Of a stretch of 28,093 nucleotides of DNA, positions 2,100 through 28,093 are shown one piece after another; the stretch's first letter is position 1, and each line of letters begins with the position of its first letter. The stretch covers positions 1-28,093 of the forward strand of contig JBDREW010000015.1 in assembly GCA_043819385.1 (NCBI GenBank). Direction: 5' to 3'. This DNA is from Candidatus Nealsonbacteria bacterium (GTDB taxonomy: Bacteria > Patescibacteriota > Minisyncoccia > Minisyncoccales > GWA2-38-27). The notes under the pieces were generated by a model. It was not told the origin of the DNA. It searched no databases and was given only the letters and a program-made list of their open reading frames with translations. Both the position numbers and the translations under genes were made by a program.

Positions 2100-2280
2100 A
2101 CTGAAAAAGAGAAAGGGAAAGCTAAAAAAATACTAGACCTCTTTAGAGAGATGAAAGAAGCTGGTAGAAGTTAGACCTCTTAATTATTAAAGAAAAAGGG
2201 AGAAAGATAGTAGGGGTCTGACCTCTTAAGAGGGGTGAGGAGAAAGCTAGTAGGGGTCTGACCTTTGTTCCAATTTCCAA
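2100..2280 (+). repeat. degenerate tandem array (~4 units of ~40 bp) related to the dispersed AGCTGG..CGACCTCT repeat family
   Basis: Recurring gaaag(a)agctgg...tagacctctt and agtaggggtctgacct units within a 688-bp non-coding stretch. Confidence 0.5.
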
Positions 2281-3098: not shown

Positions 3099-3524
3099 AT
3101 GCAATTTACAGTACCAAAATTTATTGAAAACAAACCAAAAATAATAGGTCCGCTTACTTTTAAACAATTTGTTTTTGTTGGAACAGCGGGTGGCATTTGC
3201 CTTTTTCTTTATTTTATCATTCCCATCTCTCTTTTTATAATCATAACCATATTTTTATTAGGCGGAGCTTTTGCTTTAGCTTTTATTAAAATTGGAAAGG
3301 ACCCTTTACCTGTTGTTATAAGAAATCTTCTTGTTTACAATTTTAATCCAAAAATTTATCTTTGGAAAAAAGAAATAGGCACTCCAAAAACAATAATATT
3401 AAAAAAGAAAGAAAAAATACCTGCTTTTATAAAAAATCAAGAAGACAAAAAAACTGAATTAAAAGTAACAAGAAATAGCAAATTAGACAGATTACTAACT
3501 AAAATTGCTACAAAAAACAAATGA
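3099..3524 (+). CDS. PrgI/VirB3-like small two-TM T4SS protein
   Basis: 141 aa. The N-terminus MQFTVPKFIENKPKIIGPLTFKQFVFVG is followed by two hydrophobic helices. It sits immediately upstream of VirB4 and is translationally coupled to it (ATGA overlap), as for Tn916 orf17/PrgI. Confidence 0.5.
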   Translation: MQFTVPKFIENKPKIIGPLTFKQFVFVGTAGGICLFLYFIIPISLFIIITIFLLGGAFALAFIKIGKDPLPVVIRNLLVYNFNPKIYLWKKEIGTPKTIILKKKEKIPAFIKNQEDKKTELKVTRNSKLDRLLTKIATKNK

Positions 3525-4171
3525 AAGAATCATCAACTCAAGATTTTTTAGAATTTGAACAAATAAAAAACGGGATTATCATTTTAAAAAATAAAGCATT
3601 AAGATCAGTTTTAATGACTTCTTCTTTGAATTTTGCTTTAAAATCTGAAGAAGAGCAACAATCTATTTTATATCAATTTCAAAACTTTTTGAATTCTTTA
3701 GATTTTTCAACTCAAATCCTTGTTCAATCAAGAAAATTAAATATAACTGGCTATTTAGATAAATTAAGAGAAATTGAAAAAAAAGAAAAAAGCGAATTAC
3801 TTAAAATACAACTTGATGAATATAGAAAATTTATAGAAAAAATATTATCCCAAGGGACTATTATGCAAAAAAGTTTCTATGTAATTGTCCCTTTTTCAAT
3901 TATGGAAACAAAGGAAACATCAACTATTAAAAAAGGACTCTTACCTAAAATCATTCCAGAATTAACTGAAGAAGAGTTTAATAGAGCAAAAACCCAACTT
4001 TTACAAAGGGTAGAATTTGTATCTTTAGGATTAAGAGGATTTGGACTTCAATCTTCTCCTTTAAATACATTAGAAATTATTGAACTTTTCTGGGGACTTC
4101 ATCATCCGTCAGAAGCTGAAAAAGGATATTACCCAGAATTTCCACTTGATTTAGATTTAGAAGAAGAATAA
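3521..4171 (+). CDS. VirB4/TrbE-family ATPase, N-terminal domain (5' half of a split gene)
   Basis: 216 aa. The segment FEQIKNGIIILKNKALRSVLMTSSLNFALKSEEEQQSILYQFQNFLNSLDFSTQILVQS matches the conserved N-terminal region of Gram-positive VirB4 homologues (Tn916 Orf16/TcpF/PrgJ type) from memory. The ORF ends 184 bp before the ATPase ORF, which is in a different frame. Confidence 0.6.
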   Translation: MKESSTQDFLEFEQIKNGIIILKNKALRSVLMTSSLNFALKSEEEQQSILYQFQNFLNSLDFSTQILVQSRKLNITGYLDKLREIEKKEKSELLKIQLDEYRKFIEKILSQGTIMQKSFYVIVPFSIMETKETSTIKKGLLPKIIPELTEEEFNRAKTQLLQRVEFVSLGLRGFGLQSSPLNTLEIIELFWGLHHPSEAEKGYYPEFPLDLDLEEE

Positions 4172-4186
4172 ATTTATTTATTTTCA

Positions 4187-4338
4187 AGCGAGCGAGAGAA
4201 ATGTGAAAGCTTGCTTTCACATTTCCGAGCGAGTGCTGAAAATGTATGTATTAAATACATTTTTTAATACCCCCACCCCTTGGGGTGGGATAAATATAAG
4301 TCTTTTGGGTGGGGTATAATACCCCAACCAAAAGTTCA
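4187..4338. repeat. block of four hairpins/palindromes filling the gap between the VirB4 halves
   Basis: The four elements are 4187-4237 agcgagcgagagaaatgtgaaagc/ttgc/tttcacatttccgagcgagtgct, 4240-4266 aaaatgtat-gtattaa-atacattttt, 4268-4291 ccccacccc-ttgg-ggtggg, and 4296-4330 cttttgggtggggtat-aat-accccaaccaaaag. Confidence 0.7.
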
Positions 4339-4355
4339 ATATATTCATATTTATT

Positions 4356-6161
4356 ATGAAATTACCATTTACAAAACAATTTAAAAGGAGAGAGAAAATC
4401 ATAGAACTTCCTGTACCATCTCAATCTGTTCAAATTTCTGATGTTATTGCTCCTTCTTTTATTGAAGTTAAGCAAAATCATATCAAAATAGGAGAACGTC
4501 TTGCTAAAACCTATTTTATTTTTTCATATCCAAGATATTTAACTACTGGATGGCTTTCTCCAATAATAAATCTAAATGTCCCAATGGATATTTCTTTTTA
4601 TCTTCATCCTGTTGAATCAGGAAAAATTTTAAAACAATTAAGAAGAAGAGTTACTGAAGTCCAAGCAGAAATTGGCGAAAAAGAAGAAAAAGGACAAATT
4701 AGAGACCCACAATTAGAAACAGCTTATGGCGATTTAGAAGAATTAAGAGACAAGCTCCAAACTGCCCAAGAAAGGATGTTTTATTTTGGATTATACCTAA
4801 CTATTTATGCTGATTCCGAAAAAGAACTAAGAGACACTGAAACAAACTTAAGATCAATTTTAGAATCTAGATTAATTTATATTAAGCCCGCTCTTTATCA
4901 ACAAAAAGAAGGATTTGTTTCTACTTCTCCATATAATTTAGACGTTCTAATGATTTCTAATTTGATGAACACTGGGCCTTTGTCAAGTATGTTTCCATTT
5001 ATTTCTTTTGATTTGAGTTCAAATGAAGGAATTCTTTATGGAATTAATAGGCACAACAATTCACTTGTTTTATTCGACCGATTTACTTTAGCAAATGCAA
5101 ATTCAGTAATTTTTGGAATATCAGGAGGAGGAAAATCCTATGCTATAAAATTAGAAATTTTAAGATATTTAATGCTTGGAACTGATGTTATAATTTTAGA
5201 CCCTGAAAATGAATATAAGTTTCTTTCAGATGCTGTTGGCGGGTCTTTTTTTAATATATCTTTGGCCTCTCCACATCATCTTAATCCATTTGATTTACCA
5301 CAACCAAGAGAAGATGAACTCGTAGAAGATGTTTTAAGAACAAACATTATGAATTTAGTTGGATTGATAAGAATAATGCTTGGTGGATTGACACCAGAAG
5401 AAGACGCAATTATTGATAGCGGATTAACTGAGACCTATGCTGCAAAAGATATTACTGCTAAATCAGATCCAAAACTATGGGGAAAAGAAGATGGATTAGA
5501 ATTTCCTATTATGAGTGATTTTGAAGAAGTTCTTTCAACAATGGAAGGAGCAGAATCATTAGTAAGACGACTTCAAAGATTTACCAAAGGAGTCTATTCA
5601 AGTTTTTTTAATCAACGAACTAATATAGATGTAGATAAAAGAATGGTTGTTTTTGGTATTCGTAATATGGAAGACGAACTTCGTCCAATGGCTTTATTTA
5701 TGATTTTAAGATTTATTTGGAAAACCGTTAGTGCCAAAATGAAAAAACGACTTTTAGTTATTGATGAGGCATGGTGGTTAATGCAAAATGAAGATGGTGC
5801 TTCTTTCTTATTTGGAACAGTTAAAAGGGCTAGAAAATACTGGCTTGGAGTTACTACTATTACCCAAGATGTAGCTGATTTTATGAAATCTGAATATGGT
5901 CAACCAATTATTACTAATTCATCACTTGCTTTATTGATGAAACAAAATCCAGCAACAATAGAAGTTGTTAAAAAAACTTTCAACCTAACTGAAGAAGAAA
6001 AGCTTTTACTTTTAGAAACACCCGTTGGAGAAGGTATATTTTTTGCCGGAACAAAACATGTTTTAGTTAAAATATTAGCTTCATATGCCGAAGATCAAAT
6101 AATTACAACTTCCCCTGAAGAAGTTGAGAAAATAAGACAAGCAAAAAAAGAATTAGAATAA
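4356..6161 (+). CDS. virB4: VirB4/TrbE/PrgJ-family T4SS ATPase (ATPase part)
   Basis: 601 aa with Walker A GISGGGKS, Walker B LLVIDEAW, and the IGERLAKTYFIFSYPRYLTTGWL and ILDPENEY motifs characteristic of VirB4 ATPases. Confidence 0.85.
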   Translation: MKLPFTKQFKRREKIIELPVPSQSVQISDVIAPSFIEVKQNHIKIGERLAKTYFIFSYPRYLTTGWLSPIINLNVPMDISFYLHPVESGKILKQLRRRVTEVQAEIGEKEEKGQIRDPQLETAYGDLEELRDKLQTAQERMFYFGLYLTIYADSEKELRDTETNLRSILESRLIYIKPALYQQKEGFVSTSPYNLDVLMISNLMNTGPLSSMFPFISFDLSSNEGILYGINRHNNSLVLFDRFTLANANSVIFGISGGGKSYAIKLEILRYLMLGTDVIILDPENEYKFLSDAVGGSFFNISLASPHHLNPFDLPQPREDELVEDVLRTNIMNLVGLIRIMLGGLTPEEDAIIDSGLTETYAAKDITAKSDPKLWGKEDGLEFPIMSDFEEVLSTMEGAESLVRRLQRFTKGVYSSFFNQRTNIDVDKRMVVFGIRNMEDELRPMALFMILRFIWKTVSAKMKKRLLVIDEAWWLMQNEDGASFLFGTVKRARKYWLGVTTITQDVADFMKSEYGQPIITNSSLALLMKQNPATIEVVKKTFNLTEEEKLLLLETPVGEGIFFAGTKHVLVKILASYAEDQIITTSPEEVEKIRQAKKELE

Positions 6162-6235
6162 TATAGTAAAATTAAAAATCAAAATGCAAAATGCAAAATA
6201 ACAAATTAAAAATCAAAATGGGAGAGGAGGGAAAA

Positions 6236-6300
6236 AGCTGGAAAGAGCCCCGACCTCTCTTAGAGAGGGAGAGGAAGTTTTTTAGAGGTCGGGGTTCGGG
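6236..6300 (+). repeat. dispersed structured ~65-bp repeat (copy 1): AGCTGGAAAGAGCCCCGACCTCTCTTAGAGAGGGAGAGGAAGTTTTTTAGAGGTCGGGGTTCGGG; internally deleted partial copy at 6341-6366
   Basis: Inverted repeat CCCCGACCTCT / AGAGGTCGGGG enclosing a CTCTCTTAGAGAG palindrome. Near-identical copies at 27665-27727 (+) and 21238-21310 (-). Confidence 0.8.
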
Positions 6301-6424
6301 AAAGGGAAATTAAATATTAAAACGGAAAGAGAGAAAGGAAAGCTGGGAAGAGGTCGGGGCTCGGGAGATGGAGAAGGAAAGATTAAAAATTAAAATCAAA
6401 ATGAAAGGAGAAAAAAATAAATAA

Positions 6425-6880
6425 ATGGAAAAAGATAACTCAAAACAAGAAAATAATTTAGAAGAAGAAAAACCAAAGCCAATTCTCAGTCAAGGGGAAA
6501 TGAAATTTCCAAAAGTTGAAATTGGTATGGGAGCTATTTTTAGCCCAGAAGCATTAGTGATGTTTTCTCTTGCTGGAATACTTGATATAATTGGATTTCT
6601 TCTTCTTTGTTTTGCATTAGATGATCTCTGGATTCTTGATACAACCGGACTAATACTTATTGGTTCTTGGATGTTTTTTAGAACAGGAAGCATTCCTACA
6701 TCTAAAAGATTAAGACAAAATAAACAAAATCCTACCTCAGAAATAAAAAAGAAAATGGGAAGAAAAATTTTAAAAAGATTAGGATTAGCTTTTTTTATTG
6801 AAGCAATACCATGGATTGGAGGTCTTGTTCCATCTTGGACTATAGCTGTTTATTTTGAACTTAAAAATAATCCACTATAA
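6425..6880 (+). CDS. hypothetical small membrane protein
   Basis: 151 aa with 2-3 hydrophobic helices. It lies between virB4 and the pilin-fusion genes. Confidence 0.5.
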   Translation: MEKDNSKQENNLEEEKPKPILSQGEMKFPKVEIGMGAIFSPEALVMFSLAGILDIIGFLLLCFALDDLWILDTTGLILIGSWMFFRTGSIPTSKRLRQNKQNPTSEIKKKMGRKILKRLGLAFFIEAIPWIGGLVPSWTIAVYFELKNNPL

Positions 6881-6900: not shown

Positions 6901-6948
6901 TTTACGGGGGTCTTACCCCCGGAGCTCCGGGGGTAAGACCCCCGTAAA
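6901..6948. repeat. REP-like 48-bp perfect palindrome (tttacgggggtcttacccccggag|ctccgggggtaagacccccgtaaa), centre GGAGCTCC
   Basis: Its reverse complement equals itself. It belongs to the same family as 802-845. Confidence 0.8.
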
Positions 6949-6964
6949 TTCTTTCTATAAATTA

Positions 6965-9022
6965 ATGGATAATGAAAAAAAAACAAAAGATATAAAAAGA
7001 GTTTTTTTTGGATTTTTAATCCTCTTTTTTTTATTTTTTACAAATATTGTTTTTGCTTTAGAGGTTGATTATCCATCATTTCCTGGAATACCAGATATCA
7101 ACAATTCAACATCAATGGAAGATATCACTATTTATAGGTTTAGATTTATTATTATAATTTCTGGATTTATAGCTTTATTATCTTTAGTAATAGCTGGAGC
7201 TCGTTATCTTACCTCAACCGGAAAACCAGATAAAATGGCGTCTGCCAAAGAACAAATCTCAAATGCTTTTTTTGGTCTTTTACTTTTATTGTCATCATTC
7301 CTTTTACTTCAAGCCATAAGCCCTAAATTTGTTGAATTAGGAATAACAAAACCAGAAAAAATTGAAACACCAGAAATTATAGAAACATCCGACTTCCCAA
7401 TTCAAGAGTTTAGGTCATCAATATATACTGAAATCCCTTTTGGAAAAATAATTGAACAATATATATTAGAAAATAAAAATACAATTGAAGAAGATAAAAA
7501 AGACAAAAGAAAATCAAGAATGGAAAGAATTTTAGATATTGGAGAAAACTCATTACAACTTGGCGAAAAATTAAAAAAACAAAGTGAAGAATTAAAAGAA
7601 CTTGCTCAAAAATGCGATTGTACTCAATTAAAAACTTGCTGTGAAAATTCTAATCCAGGGCCTGCCTGCACAAGTAATCTTTGTGTTTCAAAACCAGGAT
7701 GTACTGGAGACCCATGTAAAAATTCAAGAGATAATATCCAAAAAAAAGAAAAAGAAAATTTAAAAGCAATGTATGAGGGAACAGAAGTTAAACAAGATGA
7801 TATTTCTGGAAATTCTTCTCAAGTCACAACTAGCTTAAGAACTGAACAAGAAAGGGCTTCCCAAGAAATTCGACTTATAAAATATGAGATAGATAAAATA
7901 GAAAGAGCGGAAACCTTTATGATAGAATGTCCATTATGGTCAATAACAAATTTATCTGATTATTTAGATACAAAAAACTTTTATTTAGAAAAAAAATGGA
8001 GATTTGAGCCAGTTAATTTTTGGTCGGATATAAGGGTAATTGATGATTGGGCAACTGTTTATTGTGCAGTAAGTGGTAATACTTGGGAATCAAATTATCA
8101 AGAATCATCTGGCAAGATAGAAGATCTTTCAAAATCAGTGAAACGATCATATCAAGGATTTTCTAGCGACAAAGAACCAGTCACTTGTACAACTGAAATT
8201 TCAATTGGTGAGCTTATGGATAGAGCCAAAAGAACTGGATATAAATTAGTAGAAAGATTAGAAAAAATTATTGATTTGAATGAACAATTAACAAAAGCTG
8301 TTAATGACCTTCATACATTAGTAAGTCAATGCTCATCTCTCGGACCATCCGCTGATCCTCCACGAGCAGGTTGTTTTTCTCAATGCCATAAAACAATTCT
8401 TAACGCTTGTATTAAACAATGTATAGGTTTAGCTCCAGGATGGCAAGGACCTTGCCCAGCTCAAAAAATTGAAGAAAAAATTAAAGAAATTAAAGATATT
8501 GTAGAAGGAGTTCCAAACCAACCAGCTGAAAATGAAGAAAAAAAGGAAAAAGAAGGGATAAAAGATGTACTTGAAGCCAAGAAAAAAACAAAAAAAGAAG
8601 CTATTGAAGATAACGCAACAAGAGAACAAATAGGTATAAAACCAATTGTCAATGAAGTTGTTCCAAAAATAATTGAAGATTTGGCTGGAATGGTCAGAAA
8701 TCCTATTAAAAAATGTGTTTCTGGATTTACAGGGATAAGTCAAGTATTAAGCTGTAGCAATAGTATTAATGGAATAGGGCCAGAAGATAAATTAATTAAA
8801 GAATGTTGTTATAACGAAAAATGGTTTCAAGAATGTCTTGGTCAATGTTATTTAGAGGGTCCTAAAAATGAATCATCTGATAATAATTCAACAGGAAAAA
8901 AAGAGGAAAGCGAATATAAAAAATGTTTAAAAAGCTGTCAAGATAAAAAAGCCAAAGAAACTAAAATAGACGCAATATCTGATTGTCTTCATTTAATTAA
9001 TTTCTATTGTTGCTCACCATAA
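6965..9022 (+). CDS. VirB2/TrbC-like pilin-domain protein with long Cys-rich/coiled-coil C-terminal extension (paralog 1, 685 aa)
   Basis: Signal peptide, then LEVDYPSFPG, then a hydrophobic helix ...ISGFIALLSLVIAGARYLTSTGKPDKMASAKEQISNAFFGLLLLL... that aligns with the short pilin at 27067-27501. The C-terminal ~530 aa carry multiple CxxC/CC clusters and Lys/Glu-rich coiled coil. Confidence 0.7.
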   Translation: MDNEKKTKDIKRVFFGFLILFFLFFTNIVFALEVDYPSFPGIPDINNSTSMEDITIYRFRFIIIISGFIALLSLVIAGARYLTSTGKPDKMASAKEQISNAFFGLLLLLSSFLLLQAISPKFVELGITKPEKIETPEIIETSDFPIQEFRSSIYTEIPFGKIIEQYILENKNTIEEDKKDKRKSRMERILDIGENSLQLGEKLKKQSEELKELAQKCDCTQLKTCCENSNPGPACTSNLCVSKPGCTGDPCKNSRDNIQKKEKENLKAMYEGTEVKQDDISGNSSQVTTSLRTEQERASQEIRLIKYEIDKIERAETFMIECPLWSITNLSDYLDTKNFYLEKKWRFEPVNFWSDIRVIDDWATVYCAVSGNTWESNYQESSGKIEDLSKSVKRSYQGFSSDKEPVTCTTEISIGELMDRAKRTGYKLVERLEKIIDLNEQLTKAVNDLHTLVSQCSSLGPSADPPRAGCFSQCHKTILNACIKQCIGLAPGWQGPCPAQKIEEKIKEIKDIVEGVPNQPAENEEKKEKEGIKDVLEAKKKTKKEAIEDNATREQIGIKPIVNEVVPKIIEDLAGMVRNPIKKCVSGFTGISQVLSCSNSINGIGPEDKLIKECCYNEKWFQECLGQCYLEGPKNESSDNNSTGKKEESEYKKCLKSCQDKKAKETKIDAISDCLHLINFYCCSP

Positions 9023-11862: not shown

Positions 11863-11864
11863 AA

Positions 11865-11885
11865 CTCATAACTCATAACTCATAA
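11865..11885 (+). repeat. (CTCATAA)3 heptamer repeat beginning at the stop codon
   Basis: taa-aa-ctcataa-ctcataa-ctcataa-ctt. Confidence 0.7.
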
Positions 11886-11887
11886 CT

Positions 11888-11915
11888 TAAAAAATCCAGC
11901 AAAGCTGGATTTTTG
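11888..11915. terminator. bidirectional rho-independent terminator (aaaaaatccagc-aaa-gctggattttt) between convergent genes
   Basis: 7-bp stem atccagc/gctggat, flanked by an A-run and a T-run. A near-identical hairpin lies at 17118-17145. Confidence 0.7.
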
Positions 11916-11939
11916 ATTAACTAATAACCAAGTTTATTA

Positions 11940-12051
11940 GTTCCAAGTTCCAAGTTCCAAGTTCCAAGTTCCAAGTTCCAAGTTCCAAGTTCCAAGTTCC
12001 AAGTTCCAAGTTCCAAGTTCCAAGTTCCAAGTTCCAAGTTCCAAGTTCCAA
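11940..12051. repeat. (GTTCCAA)16 perfect heptamer microsatellite
   Basis: Sixteen units counted from 11940 to 12051. It ends at the jag stop codon (12053-12055). Confidence 0.95.
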
Positions 12052-13268: not shown

Positions 13269-13368
13269 AAAAATTCAATTTACAATTTTCAATTTACAAT
13301 CAATTAACCAATGTTTCAATTTTCAAACAGCTTATAAGAATACCTGTTTTTATTAAAAATTGTTTCAT

Positions 13369-13400
13369 TCCTGCCCGCATTGCTATACAAAGCGTTGCAG
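13369..13400. repeat. degenerate GC-rich hairpin (cctgcccgcattgcta...agcgttgcagacgg), related to 25822-25860
   Basis: Shares CCTGCCCGCAT(C/T)GCTA..AAGCGTTGC with the copy upstream of comM. Confidence 0.4.
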
Positions 13401-13434
13401 ACGGAAAAAATTAAACTGAAATTAAAAATTAAAA

Positions 13435-15962: not shown

Positions 15963-17093
15963 ATGAAACTCGAAATACTACAAGAAAAATTAAAAAATGG
16001 ATTAAGTATTGTTGAAAAGATTTCTTCTAAATCTTTATCATTGCCTATTTTAAATAATATATTAATTTCTACTGAAAAGAATTTTTTGAATTTATCTGCT
16101 ACTGATTTAGAAATAGGTATTAATTGGTGGACATTAACTAAAATTGAAGAACAAGGGAAAATTACAATTCCTGCACGTTTGTTTTCTAGTTTTATTAGTT
16201 TACTTCCTAATCAAAAAATTAATATTTATTCAAAAGATAATAATCTTTTTATTGGATATGAAAAATATAAAACAGAAATAAAAGGATTATCTGCTGATGA
16301 ATTTCCTATTATTCCTAAAATTGAACAAGGCGAATTTATTATATTAGATTGTAATTCTCTTTGTCAAAGTTTGTCTCAAGTAGTTGATATTTCAGTTCCC
16401 TCTACGACAAGACCTGAAATATCTGGAATATATTTTTTATTTCAAAAAAATCAAATAACTATGGTTTCGACAGATAGTTTTAGATTAGGAGAAAAAAAGA
16501 TATTTTTAAAAGAAAACTCTAATTCAAAACAAGATTATTCTTTAATTATTCCTCAAAGAGCTATTAAAGAAATTATTAATATCTTTGGAGAGAAAAAAGG
16601 TAATTTAAAAATTTATTTTTCTCCAAATCAAGTAATGTTTGAACTTTTGATGGAAGAAACAGATCATCCTCAAATACAACTTATTTCTCGTTTGATTGAA
16701 GGAGAATATCCTAATTATAAAGAAATTATTCCTCCTAAACATACAACTCAAATTATTTTAGAAAGAAATGAACTTCTTAATCAAATTAAAACAGCTAGTT
16801 TATTTGGAGGAAAAATAAATGAAGTAAAATTAAAATCTGATCTTAAAAAAGGAGAATTAGAAATTTTTAGTCAAAGTTCTGATATTGGAAAACATGAATC
16901 AACTATTAAAGCTAAAATAGAAGGAGAAGAAGTTGAAGTTGCTTTTAATCATAGATTTTTATTAGATGGATTAATGAATATTAGAAGCGCTGAAATTATT
17001 TTAGAGCTTAATGGTGATTCAGGCCCAGGATTGTTAAAACCAGTAGGGGATGAAACATATTTGTATGTTGTTATGCCCATTAAAAATACATAA
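15963..17093 (+). CDS. dnaN: DNA polymerase III beta sliding clamp
   Basis: 376 aa. Position after dnaA and three-domain clamp-like sequence. Confidence 0.9.
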   Translation: MKLEILQEKLKNGLSIVEKISSKSLSLPILNNILISTEKNFLNLSATDLEIGINWWTLTKIEEQGKITIPARLFSSFISLLPNQKINIYSKDNNLFIGYEKYKTEIKGLSADEFPIIPKIEQGEFIILDCNSLCQSLSQVVDISVPSTTRPEISGIYFLFQKNQITMVSTDSFRLGEKKIFLKENSNSKQDYSLIIPQRAIKEIINIFGEKKGNLKIYFSPNQVMFELLMEETDHPQIQLISRLIEGEYPNYKEIIPPKHTTQIILERNELLNQIKTASLFGGKINEVKLKSDLKKGELEIFSQSSDIGKHESTIKAKIEGEEVEVAFNHRFLLDGLMNIRSAEIILELNGDSGPGLLKPVGDETYLYVVMPIKNT

Positions 17094-17095
17094 CT

Positions 17096-17119
17096 CATAA
17101 CTTGGAACTTGGAACTTAA
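17096..17119 (+). repeat. heptamer module (CTCATAA)1(CTTGGAA)2CTT starting at dnaN stop codon
   Basis: taa-ctcataa-cttggaa-cttggaa-ctt. CTTGGAA is the reverse complement of the TTCCAAG unit of the 16-copy array. Confidence 0.7.
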
Positions 17120-17145
17120 AAAATCCAGCGAAAGCTGGGTTTTTA
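17118..17145 (+). terminator. rho-independent terminator (aaaaaatccagcgaaagctgggttttt)
   Basis: Same hairpin family as 11888-11915. Follows dnaN. Confidence 0.7.
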
Positions 17146-20977: not shown

Positions 20978-21237
20978 TAATATATTCTACCAAAAAATAA
21001 GTTATTAACATATGTGGAAAACAATTAAAAATTATATTTTTAATTGTTTTCTAATTTTGAATTATTAATTTTGAATTTTGAATAAATTTTTAATGACTTA
21101 ATTTTGAATTCCCGAGACCCGATCTCTATTATTAAAACTCATAATTTAGAACTTATAACTTTTTAAAATCTGACTTTTTTTATCTTTCCTTTCTTTCTAT
21201 TTTGATTTTTGATTTTTCTATTTTTCTTCCTTTCCTT

Positions 21238-21310
21238 CCCCCCGAGACCCGACCTCTAAAAAACTTCCTCTCCCTCTCGAAGAGAGGTCGGGTCTCTACC
21301 AACTTTCCCT
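21238..21310 (-). repeat. dispersed structured repeat, inverted copy (reverse complement: ggtagagacccgacctctcttcgagagggagaggaagttttttagaggtcgggtctcgggg); 17-bp fragment also at 21111-21127
   Basis: Matches 6236-6300 over ~55 bp in reverse orientation. Confidence 0.8.
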
Positions 21311-21325
21311 TTTTTATCTTTTATT

Positions 21326-23463: not shown

Positions 23464-23579
23464 TTTTATAATTTTTAATTTTGAATTTCGAATGAATTTT
23501 TAATGAAATAATTTTCAAACGAAGAACCCTTGCAGGTTTTTTTATTTTTTGTTAAAATTAAAATATAATAAACAATATT

Positions 23580-24243: not shown

Positions 24244-25797
24244 TTACTCATTATTTTTGATTCTGTACATTAAGGCCTCTGTGAGATGTTGAAATTCAAT
24301 ATTTTCTGATTCGTTTAAATCAGCAATAGTTCTGGCTACTTTTAAAACTCTGTGATATCCGCGTGCAGAAAGTTTTCCAGAATTAACAAATTGTTTTAAA
24401 ATATTTTGCGATTTTGAAGAAATTTGGCAATATTTTTTAATTTGAGGAATTTCCATTTCAGAATTAGTAAACATACCGCCACCTATTTCAAGAGAAAATC
24501 TTTGTTTTTGAATACTTCTCGCAATTTCTATTTTTTCTTTAATTTTCTCACTTGAATTTTCTATATCAGGAGCAATTAATTTTTCAAATTTTACTTGAGG
24601 AACTTCAATACAAATATCAATTCTATCAATTAATGGTCCTGATAATTTTCTACTATATTTATTAATTTGAGATGATTGACACTTACATTCTCTTTGAGGA
24701 TCTCTAAAATAGCCACAAGGGCAAGGGTTAGCAGCAGCAACAAGAGTAAATTTTGCTGGAAAAGTTAATCTATTTTTTGCTCTTAAAATAGATATTTGCC
24801 CATCTTCTAACGGTTGGCGAAGAGATTCTAAAACATCTCTGTGAAACTCAGGAAATTCATCTAAAAACAATACACCACGATGGGCTAATGTAATTTCTCC
24901 AGGTCTTGGAGGATTTCCTCCTCCAATTAAAGCTGTTTCAGAAGTTGTATGATGTGGAGCGCGAAATGGCCTTATATTTATCAAGGCCTTTTCTTTTGGT
25001 AATAATCCAGATACGCTATAAATTTTGGTTACTTCAAGTGCCTCTTCAAATGATAGAGCAGGTAAGATAGAAGAAAGGGCTTTGGCAAGTAAGCTTTTAC
25101 CAGAACCAGGAGGTCCTTGCATAAGTAGATTATGTCCACCTCCAGCAACAATTTCTAACGCTCTTTTAGAACTTTCTTGTCCTTTTATTAAGCCAAAATC
25201 AAGAGAATATTTTGGTTTTTCAAGAAAATCTTGAAAATTAACCTTAAATGGTTCTATTTTGATTTTATTCTCTAAATAATCAATTACTTGCTTTAATGTT
25301 TCAACAGCAATTATTTTAGGATTTTTTTCTGTATTTTGAGATGTTATTAAGCTTGCTTCTTGGGCGTTTTCTTTTGGAAGTATTATTTCTTTTATGCCAT
25401 ATTTTTTTGCAGTTAAAACAAGAGAAAGAACTCCTTTAATTGACCTTAATCTACCGTCTAAAGATAATTCTCCCATAAAAACCTTGTCTGTTGGGTCAAA
25501 TCTAATTTGATTAGATGATAATAAATATCCTAATGCAATAGGTAGGTCATAGAGAGAACCCTCTTTTTTTAGGTCAGCTGGGGCTAAATTGATTAAAATT
25601 CTTTGAGATCTAGCATAAGGGGACTGGAATTTAGAACTTTTAATTGCTGAAGCAACTCTTTCTTTTGATTCTTCAACTGTTTTGTCAGGCAATCCAACAA
25701 TACTAAAAGATCGCAAAGCAAAAGAAACATCTGTTTCTACTTCAATAATTTGGGCATCAAGACCAGTTATTGCAACAGAATATAGTTTTGAAGGCAT
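24244..25797 (-). CDS. comM: ComM/YifB Mg-chelatase-like AAA+ ATPase
   Basis: 517 aa. Walker A GPPGSGKS, ChlI-type motifs and the C-terminal Mg_chelatase_C region. Confidence 0.9.
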   Translation of the reverse strand: MPSKLYSVAITGLDAQIIEVETDVSFALRSFSIVGLPDKTVEESKERVASAIKSSKFQSPYARSQRILINLAPADLKKEGSLYDLPIALGYLLSSNQIRFDPTDKVFMGELSLDGRLRSIKGVLSLVLTAKKYGIKEIILPKENAQEASLITSQNTEKNPKIIAVETLKQVIDYLENKIKIEPFKVNFQDFLEKPKYSLDFGLIKGQESSKRALEIVAGGGHNLLMQGPPGSGKSLLAKALSSILPALSFEEALEVTKIYSVSGLLPKEKALINIRPFRAPHHTTSETALIGGGNPPRPGEITLAHRGVLFLDEFPEFHRDVLESLRQPLEDGQISILRAKNRLTFPAKFTLVAAANPCPCGYFRDPQRECKCQSSQINKYSRKLSGPLIDRIDICIEVPQVKFEKLIAPDIENSSEKIKEKIEIARSIQKQRFSLEIGGGMFTNSEMEIPQIKKYCQISSKSQNILKQFVNSGKLSARGYHRVLKVARTIADLNESENIEFQHLTEALMYRIKNNE

Positions 25798-25821
25798 ATT
25801 TTAAATTATAATTATAAATTA

Positions 25822-25860
25822 CCTGCCCGCATCGCTACGCGAAGCGTTGCGGGCGGGTGA
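25822..25860. repeat. GC-rich long hairpin acctgcccgcatcgctacgcgaagcgttgcgggcgggt upstream of comM
   Basis: Imperfect ~16-bp stem. A degenerate copy lies at 13369-13400. Confidence 0.6.
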
Positions 25861-26116: not shown

Positions 26117-26164
26117 CTTACGGAGAGGTACTCTCCGGAATTCCGGAGAGTACCTCTCCGTAAG
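26117..26164. repeat. 48-bp perfect palindrome cttacggagaggtactctccggaa|ttccggagagtacctctccgtaag centred on GGAATTCC, followed by a half-copy and a T-run
   Basis: The reverse complement is identical to the sequence. Each arm is itself the hairpin cggagag-gta-ctctccg. A related single hairpin lies at 26935-26966. Confidence 0.85.
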
Positions 26165-26884: not shown

Positions 26885-26934
26885 TATGTGCGGGGATCGG
26901 ACCCCCGCAAGTTATTTTATGATTAATTTAGGTT

Positions 26935-26966
26935 GCGGAGAGGTGCTCTCCGTAAGTTTTTCAAAT
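26935..26966. repeat. single-hairpin copy of the cggagag-gtN-ctctccgtaagttttt family
   Basis: gcggagaggtgctctccgtaagttttt. Confidence 0.6.
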
Positions 26967-27501: not shown

Positions 27502-27550
27502 TGTAAAGTTGCTTCATATCTGCTCGTAGGCAGACAGGGTTTGTCTATCT

Positions 27551-27622
27551 GCCCCTATAACTCAATTGGCAGAGTAGTGGACTCTTAATCCATAAATCCA
27601 GGTTCAAGTCCTGGTAGGGGCA
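27551..27622 (+). tRNA. tRNA-Lys (anticodon CTT)
   Basis: Manual cloverleaf fold. Acceptor GCCCCTA/TAGGGGC, D stem ACTC/GAGT, anticodon stem GTGGA/TCCAT with loop CTCTTAA, T stem CCAGG/CCTGG with loop TTCAAGT. 72 nt, no encoded CCA. Confidence 0.85.
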
Positions 27623-27664
27623 TATATATAAAATAAATATTTAAAATAGAAAGTAAAAGGGGAA

Positions 27665-27727
27665 AGCTGGAAAAAGTCCCGACCTCTCTCGAGAGGGAAA
27701 AGAAGTTTTGTAGAGGTCGGGGCTTGG
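27665..27727 (+). repeat. dispersed structured repeat copy (agctggaaaaagtcccgacctctctcgagagggaaaagaagttttgtagaggtcggggcttgg) ~40 bp downstream of tRNA-Lys
   Basis: Same family as 6236-6300. Confidence 0.8.
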
Positions 27728-27841
27728 AGAGGAAGAGAAAAAATAGAGAAATTAGTTAAAAATTTGAATCTCATTCAAAATTAAAAATTAATTTAAAGGT
27801 TGGATAATAAGTTGGATAATAAGTAATATGATAAAATTAAT

Positions 27842-28093
27842 ATGTTAAATACAGCAAAAAAAGAGAAAATTATAAAAAAGTATAAGGTTCATGATACTGA
27901 TACTGGATCTGATGAAGTTCAAATTGCTTTGCTTTCAAGCGAAATTAAAGAACTTCTTACTCATCTTAAAAAACATCCTAAAGATTTTCATTCAAAAAGA
28001 GGTCTTTTAAAAATGGTTCTAAAAGAAGAGGTCTTTTAAAACACCTAAAAAAAGAAAACGAAAAAAAATATAATAGTGTTATCAAAAAAATAG
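27842..28093 (+). CDS. rpsO: 30S ribosomal protein S15, apparent -1 frameshift in an A-run near 28008-28012; 3' end beyond window
   Basis: [32 protein letters not shown]...[12 protein letters not shown] matches S15, then stops at 28039. Shifting by one A restores [24 protein letters not shown] (the S15 C-terminus), which runs to the window edge. Confidence 0.7.

Follow-up and report, generated by a model that had tools for sequence, protein, structure and literature searches.

The window analysed here is a complete contig, 28,093 nt long, from a MAG of Candidatus Nealsonbacteria (locus tags ABH956_*); its GC content is ~29%. It carries a T4SS-like operon (PrgI, a TraC-N ORF, VirB4 and three pilin-domain ORFs), together with jag-yidC-rnpA, dnaA-dnaN, SPFH, VirB6-like, ksgA, LysM-M23, comM, tRNA-Lys and rpsO genes, in an order common to the contig and its relatives. 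The rpsO gene at the contig end (27842-28093) appears frameshifted near 28019-28024: its N-terminal frame stops and the conserved C-terminus lies in another frame, which could reflect an assembly error or a pseudogene. Between these genes lies a hairpin repeat, which we delimited with a covariance model, R1, built on an alignment (A5) of five full copies, three in this contig and two in contig JBDRGZ010000010.1. Copy 1 (6229-6311, plus strand, 100.5 bits) starts 68 nt past the stop codon (6161) of the VirB4-like ORF. Copy 2 (27658-27739, plus strand, 98.9 bits; stem 27674-27687 with 27712-27725) follows tRNA-Lys(ctt) (27550-27623) and precedes the rpsO start codon (27842). Copy 3 (21230-21312, minus strand, 95.1 bits; stem 21244-21257 with 21283-21296) starts 13 nt past the ksgA stop codon, upstream of the VirB6/TrbL-like ORF, both genes being on the minus strand, and the repeat finder (pair I2) showed it to be 93% complementary to copy 1 across 57 nt. 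This is the gene context that a first-pass annotation of the contig had described: after virB4, after tRNA-Lys, and between ksgA and the VirB6-like gene.

Besides the full copies, several incomplete ones were detected. A tandem partner of copy 1 lies 105 nt downstream of it (6334-6376, plus strand, 17.5 bits; families D5 and D7), and corresponds to the deleted copy previously placed at 6341-6366. Its 5' flank, AAAGCTGGGAAGAG, is fused directly to the right arm, GTCGGGGCTCGGG (GTCGGGG), the left arm and loop being missing between two AGAG microhomologies, and it has no stable fold. Palindromes that extrude during replication are typically lost by deletion between short direct repeats, and the loss in this copy is what would be expected from slippage across an extruded hairpin. 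A solo right-arm fragment (21111-21128, minus strand; CCCGAGACCCGATCTCTA, or TAGAGATCGGGTCTCGGG on the sense strand) shares the intergenic block of copy 3, ~130 nt downstream of it. It had been noted at 21111-21127; it matches 21241-21258 at 17/18 positions, and its CCGATCTCT was recovered by the arm search. The degenerate array reported at 2100-2280, which precedes the T4SS-like operon in a divergent region, resolved into two R1 matches. The first (2113-2158, plus strand, 16.4 bits; family D8) is a decayed copy in which G/C has changed to A/T in both arms (CTAGACCTCT ... AGAAGTTAG), and it folds no better than shuffled sequence. The second (2198-2279, plus strand, 21.2 bits) contains the left half of the unit twice, in rearranged form: AGAAAG(A/C)TAGTAGGGGTCTGACCT(C/T)T. 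Pieces of the repeat are thus present at 2.1, 6.2, 21.2 and 27.7 kb, in line with the at least four intergenic sites proposed earlier. R1 scans of the contig, including scans with the speed filters off, gave no matches beyond these copies and pieces. The arm 9-mer, CCGACCTCT, occurs nine times in the 28 kb with at most one mismatch, against 0.81 expected, and none of 100 shuffles reached nine; the repeat finder independently recovered the copies as direct families D5, D7, D8 and D20 and inverted pairs I2, I5 and I7. A role as a DNA-uptake sequence was considered and rejected, the 9-mer being found inside the elements only.

Read on the sense strand, the unit consists of a purine-rich leader ending in GGRAAAGCTGGAAAGAG, a stem, a loop, a purine-rich trailer (CGGRGAGG...) and an A-tract tail of the form ATAGAAAAATCAAAAAT. 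The stem is GC-rich and 14 bp long, pairing GAGCCCCGACCTCT with AGAGGTCGGGGTTC in copy 1 (6245-6258 with 6284-6297), rather than the 11-bp inverted repeat first described. Likewise, the unit is not confined to ~65 bp: it runs past the hairpin, with a core of 83 nt and a total length of ~150 nt including the A-tract tail. The loop of ~25 nt (25 nt in copy 1, where it contains GAAGTTTTTT) comprises an inner palindrome, CCTCTC-TTA-GAGAGG, which overlaps the left arm, and GAAGTTTT(T/G)T. An origin of GGGGTTCGGG from a tRNA T-arm was discarded, since this motif occurs in copy 1 only and the consensus is GGGTCTCGG. Similarity between loci spans ~120-190 nt, extending from the stem by 15-45 nt on the upstream side and 25-60 nt on the downstream side. 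The first pass had called the full copies near-identical; there are indeed three of them, and near-identity holds for the hairpin only, identity between loci being 70-83% over the 83-nt core. Averaged over pairs of copies, identity reaches 88% in the stem, 90% in the loop and 60% in the flanks.

The repeat unit has a direction. On the five full copies, R1 scores 95-101 bits in the sense orientation versus 17-22 bits in the antisense orientation, indicating that the unit is asymmetric overall and not a simple palindrome, and purines predominate in both flanks on one and the same strand, so that the flanks are not inverted repeats of each other. Comparison of the copies revealed no terminal inverted repeats, the inverted repeat being internal. 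No consistent direct repeat abuts the stem, and A/T-rich, low-complexity sequence at the unit ends blurs any target-site duplication; for example, AATTAAAAATCAAAATG recurs at 6170, 6204 and ~6388. Tandem arrangements recur: the full and deleted copies 105 nt apart (6229-6376), the full copy and solo right arm ~130 nt apart (21312-21111), and two full copies 159 nt apart in JBDRGZ010000010.1. A coding function was also considered and rejected: copy 1 has a 31-codon ATG ORF through the element, whereas a 1-nt loop indel shifts the frame in copy 2, which has no start codon, so that the open frame is a by-product of purine richness.

The hairpin is maintained as a pairing. In alignment A5, 95.7% of the cells of the 14-pair stem are paired, versus 24-56% when the partner columns are slid. 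Both partners have changed in two stem pairs, G-C/A-U at columns 17/70 and C-G/U.G/A-U at columns 21/67. As the alignment comprises five sequences and 32-64 of 500 shuffles reach the observed values, this covariation is suggestive, not proof. The non-Watson-Crick cells comprise three G.U pairs on the sense strand, while one would wobble on the antisense strand only. The minimum free energies of copies 1, 2 and 3 are -29.4, -28.9 and -30.9 kcal/mol for the sense RNA (z -2.2 to -3.4) and -22.4, -19.2 and -29.0 kcal/mol for the antisense RNA. The loop shows the same level of conservation as the stem (90% versus 88%), which suggests recent copying and is not expected of an old structural RNA. The first-pass annotation had made the reality of the family hinge on further copies and compensatory variation; both were found, and their existence favours a real repeat family.

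How widely does this family occur? A scan of one genome per GTDB species with an exact pattern of 19 bases taken from the element's right half gave a single match, JBDRGZ010000010.1, a 5.4-kb contig of a Patescibacteria MAG, in which two tandem full copies lie in sense orientation between two large unrelated ORFs, surface-protein genes. The whole assembly of that MAG contains two exact-pattern matches. Five full copies are therefore known, three of them in the one 28-kb contig examined of the source MAG. We conclude that the repeat family is real and has further members outside the contig. Two metagenome matches to the pattern GAAGTTTTNTAGAGGTCGGG (L002 and L003) have no left arm and lie in unrelated GC-rich contexts, and were set aside as chance matches. 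A first scan of a viral collection gave no match, and the hairpin found there with a two-arm pattern (L013) lies in a high-GC phage contig, scores 18 bits and is unrelated. BLAST against phage and plasmid collections gave no match. At gathering thresholds, Rfam recognised tRNA-Lys only, and an E-value scan of 6150-6430 returned noise only (E >= 4.6). No parent IS with matching ends was found in the contig, in JBDRGZ010000010.1 or in the exact-pattern scans, from which diverged ends would escape.

The history of the copies becomes apparent at the orthologous junctions of relatives. The gap between VirB4 and the next ORF, an orthologue in the contig and the relatives, measures 263 nt here versus 4 nt in L004 and L005 and 1 nt in L006 and L007, whose VirB4 proteins are 82-87% identical; in more distant relatives it is 39-107 nt. 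In genome GCA_964391095.1 (contig CAYMJA010000002.1, hereafter L012), the ksgA-to-VirB6-like gap is 25 nt versus 348 nt here, and the tRNA-Lys(ctt)-to-rpsO gap is 16 nt versus ~218 nt here. An R1 scan of ~107 kb of orthologous loci of relatives detected no copy. The copies are thus positioned directly after gene ends, where the gaps of relatives are 1-25 nt, and as these junctions are free of the element, the element-bearing blocks are lineage-specific insertions and not conserved regulatory regions. Our preferred interpretation, to which we assign a probability of roughly 0.62, is that the element is a lineage-specific, non-coding, non-autonomous REP/BIME/MITE-like repeat that spread by copying to intergenic junctions in one Candidatus Nealsonbacteria lineage. 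Of the explanations offered in the first pass, a MITE, a small structured RNA or a family of protein-binding sites, the first survives in part: a mobile or dispersed repeat is well supported by the unlinked sites, both orientations, a second MAG and three empty junctions, and the element is not a MITE in the strict sense, its inverted repeat being internal and its flanks purine-rich on both sides.

Under this interpretation, the element would have been copied into short spacers directly after gene ends, and local tandem duplication would have followed its arrival. One copy later lost its hairpin by deletion between short direct repeats, and older copies are decaying toward A/T. Insertion, hairpin, deletion product and decay can be read from the copies themselves and from the empty junctions; for the copying enzyme, we infer a trans-acting protein that would recognise the hairpin on single-stranded DNA, the HUH/Y1 type being the most plausible class. 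The uniform sense orientation may come from the insertion mechanism or from selection against polar effects in formerly compact operons. The element itself would be mainly selfish or neutral, with at most a secondary effect as an mRNA hairpin.

The contig contains a single transposase gene, the minus-strand ORF 32-772, which encodes a 246-aa protein with a Y1_Tnp domain, the HUH motif (HIH) and a YIHTNP motif. Its best NCBIfam model is the REP-associated tyrosine transposase, and homologues (2344 at E<=1e-10) are widespread in CPR, mostly on very short contigs. In another CPR genome (L014), the homologous Y1 gene is a single gene between fpg and holA, among housekeeping genes, and a hairpin, AGCGGAGG...CCTCCGCT, occurs inside it and just downstream (3203-3239 and 3755-3790), an arrangement that resembles RAYTs. 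These features, together with the GTAG in front of the right arm of three copies and of the left-arm-like pieces at 2100-2280, as E. coli REPs start with GTAG, raise the question of whether the repeat is a REPIN-like element mobilised specifically by the protein of ORF 32-772, which would bind and copy the single-stranded hairpin. However, a cognate REP is expected to flank its own RAYT gene, and the palindrome adjoining this ORF is of another sequence family. On the 5' side lies a perfect double palindrome, CGGGGGTCTTGCCCCCGGAGCTCCGGGGGCAAGACCCCCGG (799-845), a second copy of which occupies 6902-6947, between orf151 and the first pilin ORF, where the gap of relatives is 8-13 nt; on the 3' side, the contig ends after 31 nt. 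Moreover, the NCBIfam score of 46 bits is under the 80-bit cutoff, and the element does not consist of paired inverted REPs: neither arm is a palindrome. We therefore consider direct mobilisation by this protein unlikely, and no transposase in the contig could be linked to the hairpin repeat. The Y1 gene and the 799-845 palindromes look more REPIN/RAYT-like than the hairpin repeat itself. A further palindrome (26120-26161) has the 799-845 architecture with a different stem, and single hairpins occur nearby (26889-26909 and 26933-26955).

A broader version, in which the several co-resident hairpin families (the repeat, the 799-845 type and the 4172-4355 type described below) would form a REPIN-like population in CPR, mobilised on single-stranded DNA by a domesticated Y1/RAYT-like transposase widespread in Patescibacteria, strikes us as similarly doubtful. 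If it were true, this would be the first such system described in the CPR radiation, one that would be actively expanding intergenic spacers and, in relatives, inserting in frame in housekeeping genes, in otherwise streamlined genomes. None of the papers searched mentions Patescibacteria together with RAYT or REPIN, and the one that mentions MITEs together with CPR is unrelated.

The orientation of the copies invites an explanation at the RNA level. At all five loci, four in the contig and one in JBDRGZ010000010.1, the element is in the sense of the flanking genes (VirB4-orf151, ksgA-VirB6, tRNA-Lys-rpsO, the divergent region upstream of the T4SS-like operon, and the JBDRGZ010000010.1 locus; two-sided binomial p ~0.06). 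This orientation could point to an RNA-level function, and so could the bias of G.U pairs to the sense strand. Replication-strand bias was discarded as an explanation: three of four copies are on the leading-strand template, with the origin assumed near dnaA (~14 kb), which is less consistent than the transcription orientation. The repeat could then be a cis-acting RNA in mRNAs, either a hairpin that protects or processes 3' ends or an insulator between cistrons, kept by selection after duplication. E. coli REP hairpins, which stabilise the upstream mRNA, offer a precedent, and such a role would accord with the sense orientation to both flanking genes at all five loci, with the better folding of the sense strand in all three contig copies, and with the three sense-strand G.U pairs and two double compensatory pairs. 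Yet the element is missing from the same junctions in every relative examined, the loop is conserved to the same extent as the stem, the degenerate copies no longer fold, the fold z-scores reach only -2.2 to -3.4, and the wobble bias is equally explicable by C-to-T deamination of the non-template strand. We therefore regard a selected cis-acting RNA as unsupported and quite improbable. The lack of an Rfam match, the absence from the ~107 kb of relatives' loci and the conservation of the loop also count against the small structured RNA of the first pass.

Spread by insertion was also weighed against recombination. The repeat might be a mosaic intergenic module that needs no dedicated transposase and is dispersed by local duplication together with recombination or gene conversion, as in the BIME mosaics of E. 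coli. The element-bearing gaps are indeed composites of several repeat modules, among them solo right arms, families D10 and D14 and the A-tract, (AAAATCAAAAT)n; tandem copies recur with periods of 105-159 nt; and copies share combinations of variants, with GAAAAG...GT in w27665 and L001A and GAGAGG...GT in L001B. By contrast, recombination alone does not explain the arrival at 1-25 nt junctions without shared homology, nor the presence of copies on both strands of the chromosome and, in a second genome, at a site flanked by unrelated genes, which makes this explanation very unlikely.

Least probable of all, and barely credible, is that the copies are intrinsic terminators or an operator family of the T4SS-like genes: a terminator scan does flag a sense inner hairpin, CCTCTCTT-AGAGA-GGGAGAGG, followed by a U-run, AAGTTTTTT, at 6254-6274 and 21287-21267, and three of the four contig loci flank T4SS-like genes, but neither strand carries a U-tail after the main 14-bp stem (which is followed by UUCGGGAAAGG, GGAGAGG or CGGGGGG), conservation does not extend to the inner hairpin (two copies have GAAAAG in place of GAGAGG), RNA ending at the U-run is no more stable than its shuffled counterparts (z -1.0 to 0.0), a terminator would be polar inside an operon that is translationally coupled in relatives, and copies also lie at tRNA-Lys/rpsO and between the surface-protein genes of JBDRGZ010000010.1, with arms that co-vary as those of a hairpin would, which likewise disfavours the protein-binding sites proposed in the first pass. 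A terminator on the antisense strand was rejected separately, only 2-3 U being present in the first 8 nt past the stem.

The hairpin repeat shares its intergenic surroundings with other repeats. Between the TraC-N and VirB4 ORFs, where the gap of relatives is 4-15 nt, lies a 184-nt multi-hairpin block (4172-4355) of the GCGAGCGAG...CTCGCTCGC type, with ACCCCCACCCCTTGGGGTGGG, and a 71-nt inverted partner of this block, 83% complementary, is found at 2362-2432. Two further families have two intergenic copies each, one a GC-rich hairpin, CCTGCCCGCATCGCTA...GCGTTGCGGGCGG (13338-13404 and 25790-25856), the other an AT-rich module of the TTTTGAATT type (21055-21108 and 23465-23518). A perfect heptamer microsatellite, (AGTTCCA) ~17x, separates the last pilin ORF from jag (11939-12050), and related heptamer tracts, (AACTCAT)n and (AACTTGG)n, occur at other gene ends (11863-11888, 17071-17132, 2267-2302 and 21129-21161), two heptamer tracts directly abutting pieces of the hairpin repeat. 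The intergenic DNA of this contig is a mosaic of repeat modules. An AT-rich palindrome, GAAATTGATTTTAATCAATTTC, followed by TATTTAA is nearly identical at 2018-2039, upstream of the T4SS-like operon, and at ~3997-4019 on the minus strand of JBDRGZ010000010.1, where it precedes a very large ORF; the palindrome may represent an operator or promoter motif common to both contigs.

Palindromic insertion also extends to a relative. In L012, a palindromic element made of CCCCGTTAGAGAT, ~33 nt and ATCTCTAACGGGG (7339-7397 and 4046-4104) lies in frame in ksgA and comM. The 63-nt element adds 21 aa (NPVRD...ISNGV) to each protein, which are absent from the orthologues of the contig, the ComM proteins being otherwise 72% identical. 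This family differs in sequence from the hairpin repeat and, through its in-frame insertion in coding genes, resembles the Rickettsia palindromic elements (RPE); to our knowledge, no such RPE-like insertion has been described for CPR. Considered with the insertions at 4172-4355 and 6902-6947 and with the Y1 gene, the L012 family suggests that small palindromic insertions are recurrent in this clade.

Compared with known systems, the hairpin repeat behaves like small dispersed repeats of the REP/BIME, BOX or MITE type. It resembles the REP/REPIN-RAYT and BIME sequences of enterobacteria and pseudomonads, which are GC-rich extragenic palindromes located just past gene ends, occurring singly, in tandem or mixed with other short motifs, with hairpin potential on single-stranded DNA or mRNA, and a RAYT-like Y1 gene lies in the same contig. 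Unlike a REPIN, it is not a doublet of inverted REPs, its 14-nt arms being inverted copies of each other, neither of them palindromic. It further differs in that the palindrome flanking the Y1 gene belongs to another family, and in its host, a CPR bacterium of ~29% GC. REPINs number tens to hundreds of extragenic copies per genome; of the repeat, five full copies have been seen, three in the 28-kb contig and two in the assembly of the other MAG. With the Correia/NEMIS elements of Neisseria and the RUP of Streptococcus pneumoniae, the repeat shares small size, lack of coding capacity, intergenic dispersal and insertion demonstrated by empty orthologous sites, and those elements too can sit in operons and be co-transcribed. 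In contrast to these MITEs, its inverted repeat is internal, its ends are purine-rich with no terminal inverted repeats, no target-site duplication is definable at its low-complexity ends and no parent IS was found. The BOX elements of S. pneumoniae are likewise modular, asymmetric and structured intergenic repeats with variable tandem sub-units and no identified transposase, but they share no sequence similarity with the repeat, follow a different module plan and belong to a different phylum. RPEs also form a palindromic insertion family in a reduced, AT-rich genome, except that they insert in frame in coding genes whereas the copies of the repeat are all intergenic. A CRISPR array or integron attC sites were rejected, as the copies are dispersed at 2.1, 6.2, 21.2 and 27.7 kb in two orientations and no cas or integrase domains are found among the contig ORFs.

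CPR/Patescibacteria are regarded as having small, compact genomes. In this contig, hairpin-repeat blocks of 200-350 nt have opened two housekeeping junctions and a T4SS-like operon that is conserved and translationally coupled, where sister genomes have 1-25 nt. The hairpin repeat is a lineage-restricted family of a well-known kind, and appears to be a commonplace small selfish repeat, not a new regulatory RNA. In annotation, hairpins of this kind call for transcript evidence before they are labelled sRNAs or terminators. If the repeat is truly mobile, it would be a marker of very recent genome dynamics in an uncultured lineage, and it would partly explain contig breaks in assemblies. The Y1 gene and its palindromes provide a concrete place for testing REP/RAYT-type systems beyond the phyla in which they were defined. 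The main value of these observations is that they reveal a Nealsonbacteria genome that, unlike its sisters, is being colonised by several families of palindromic insertions.
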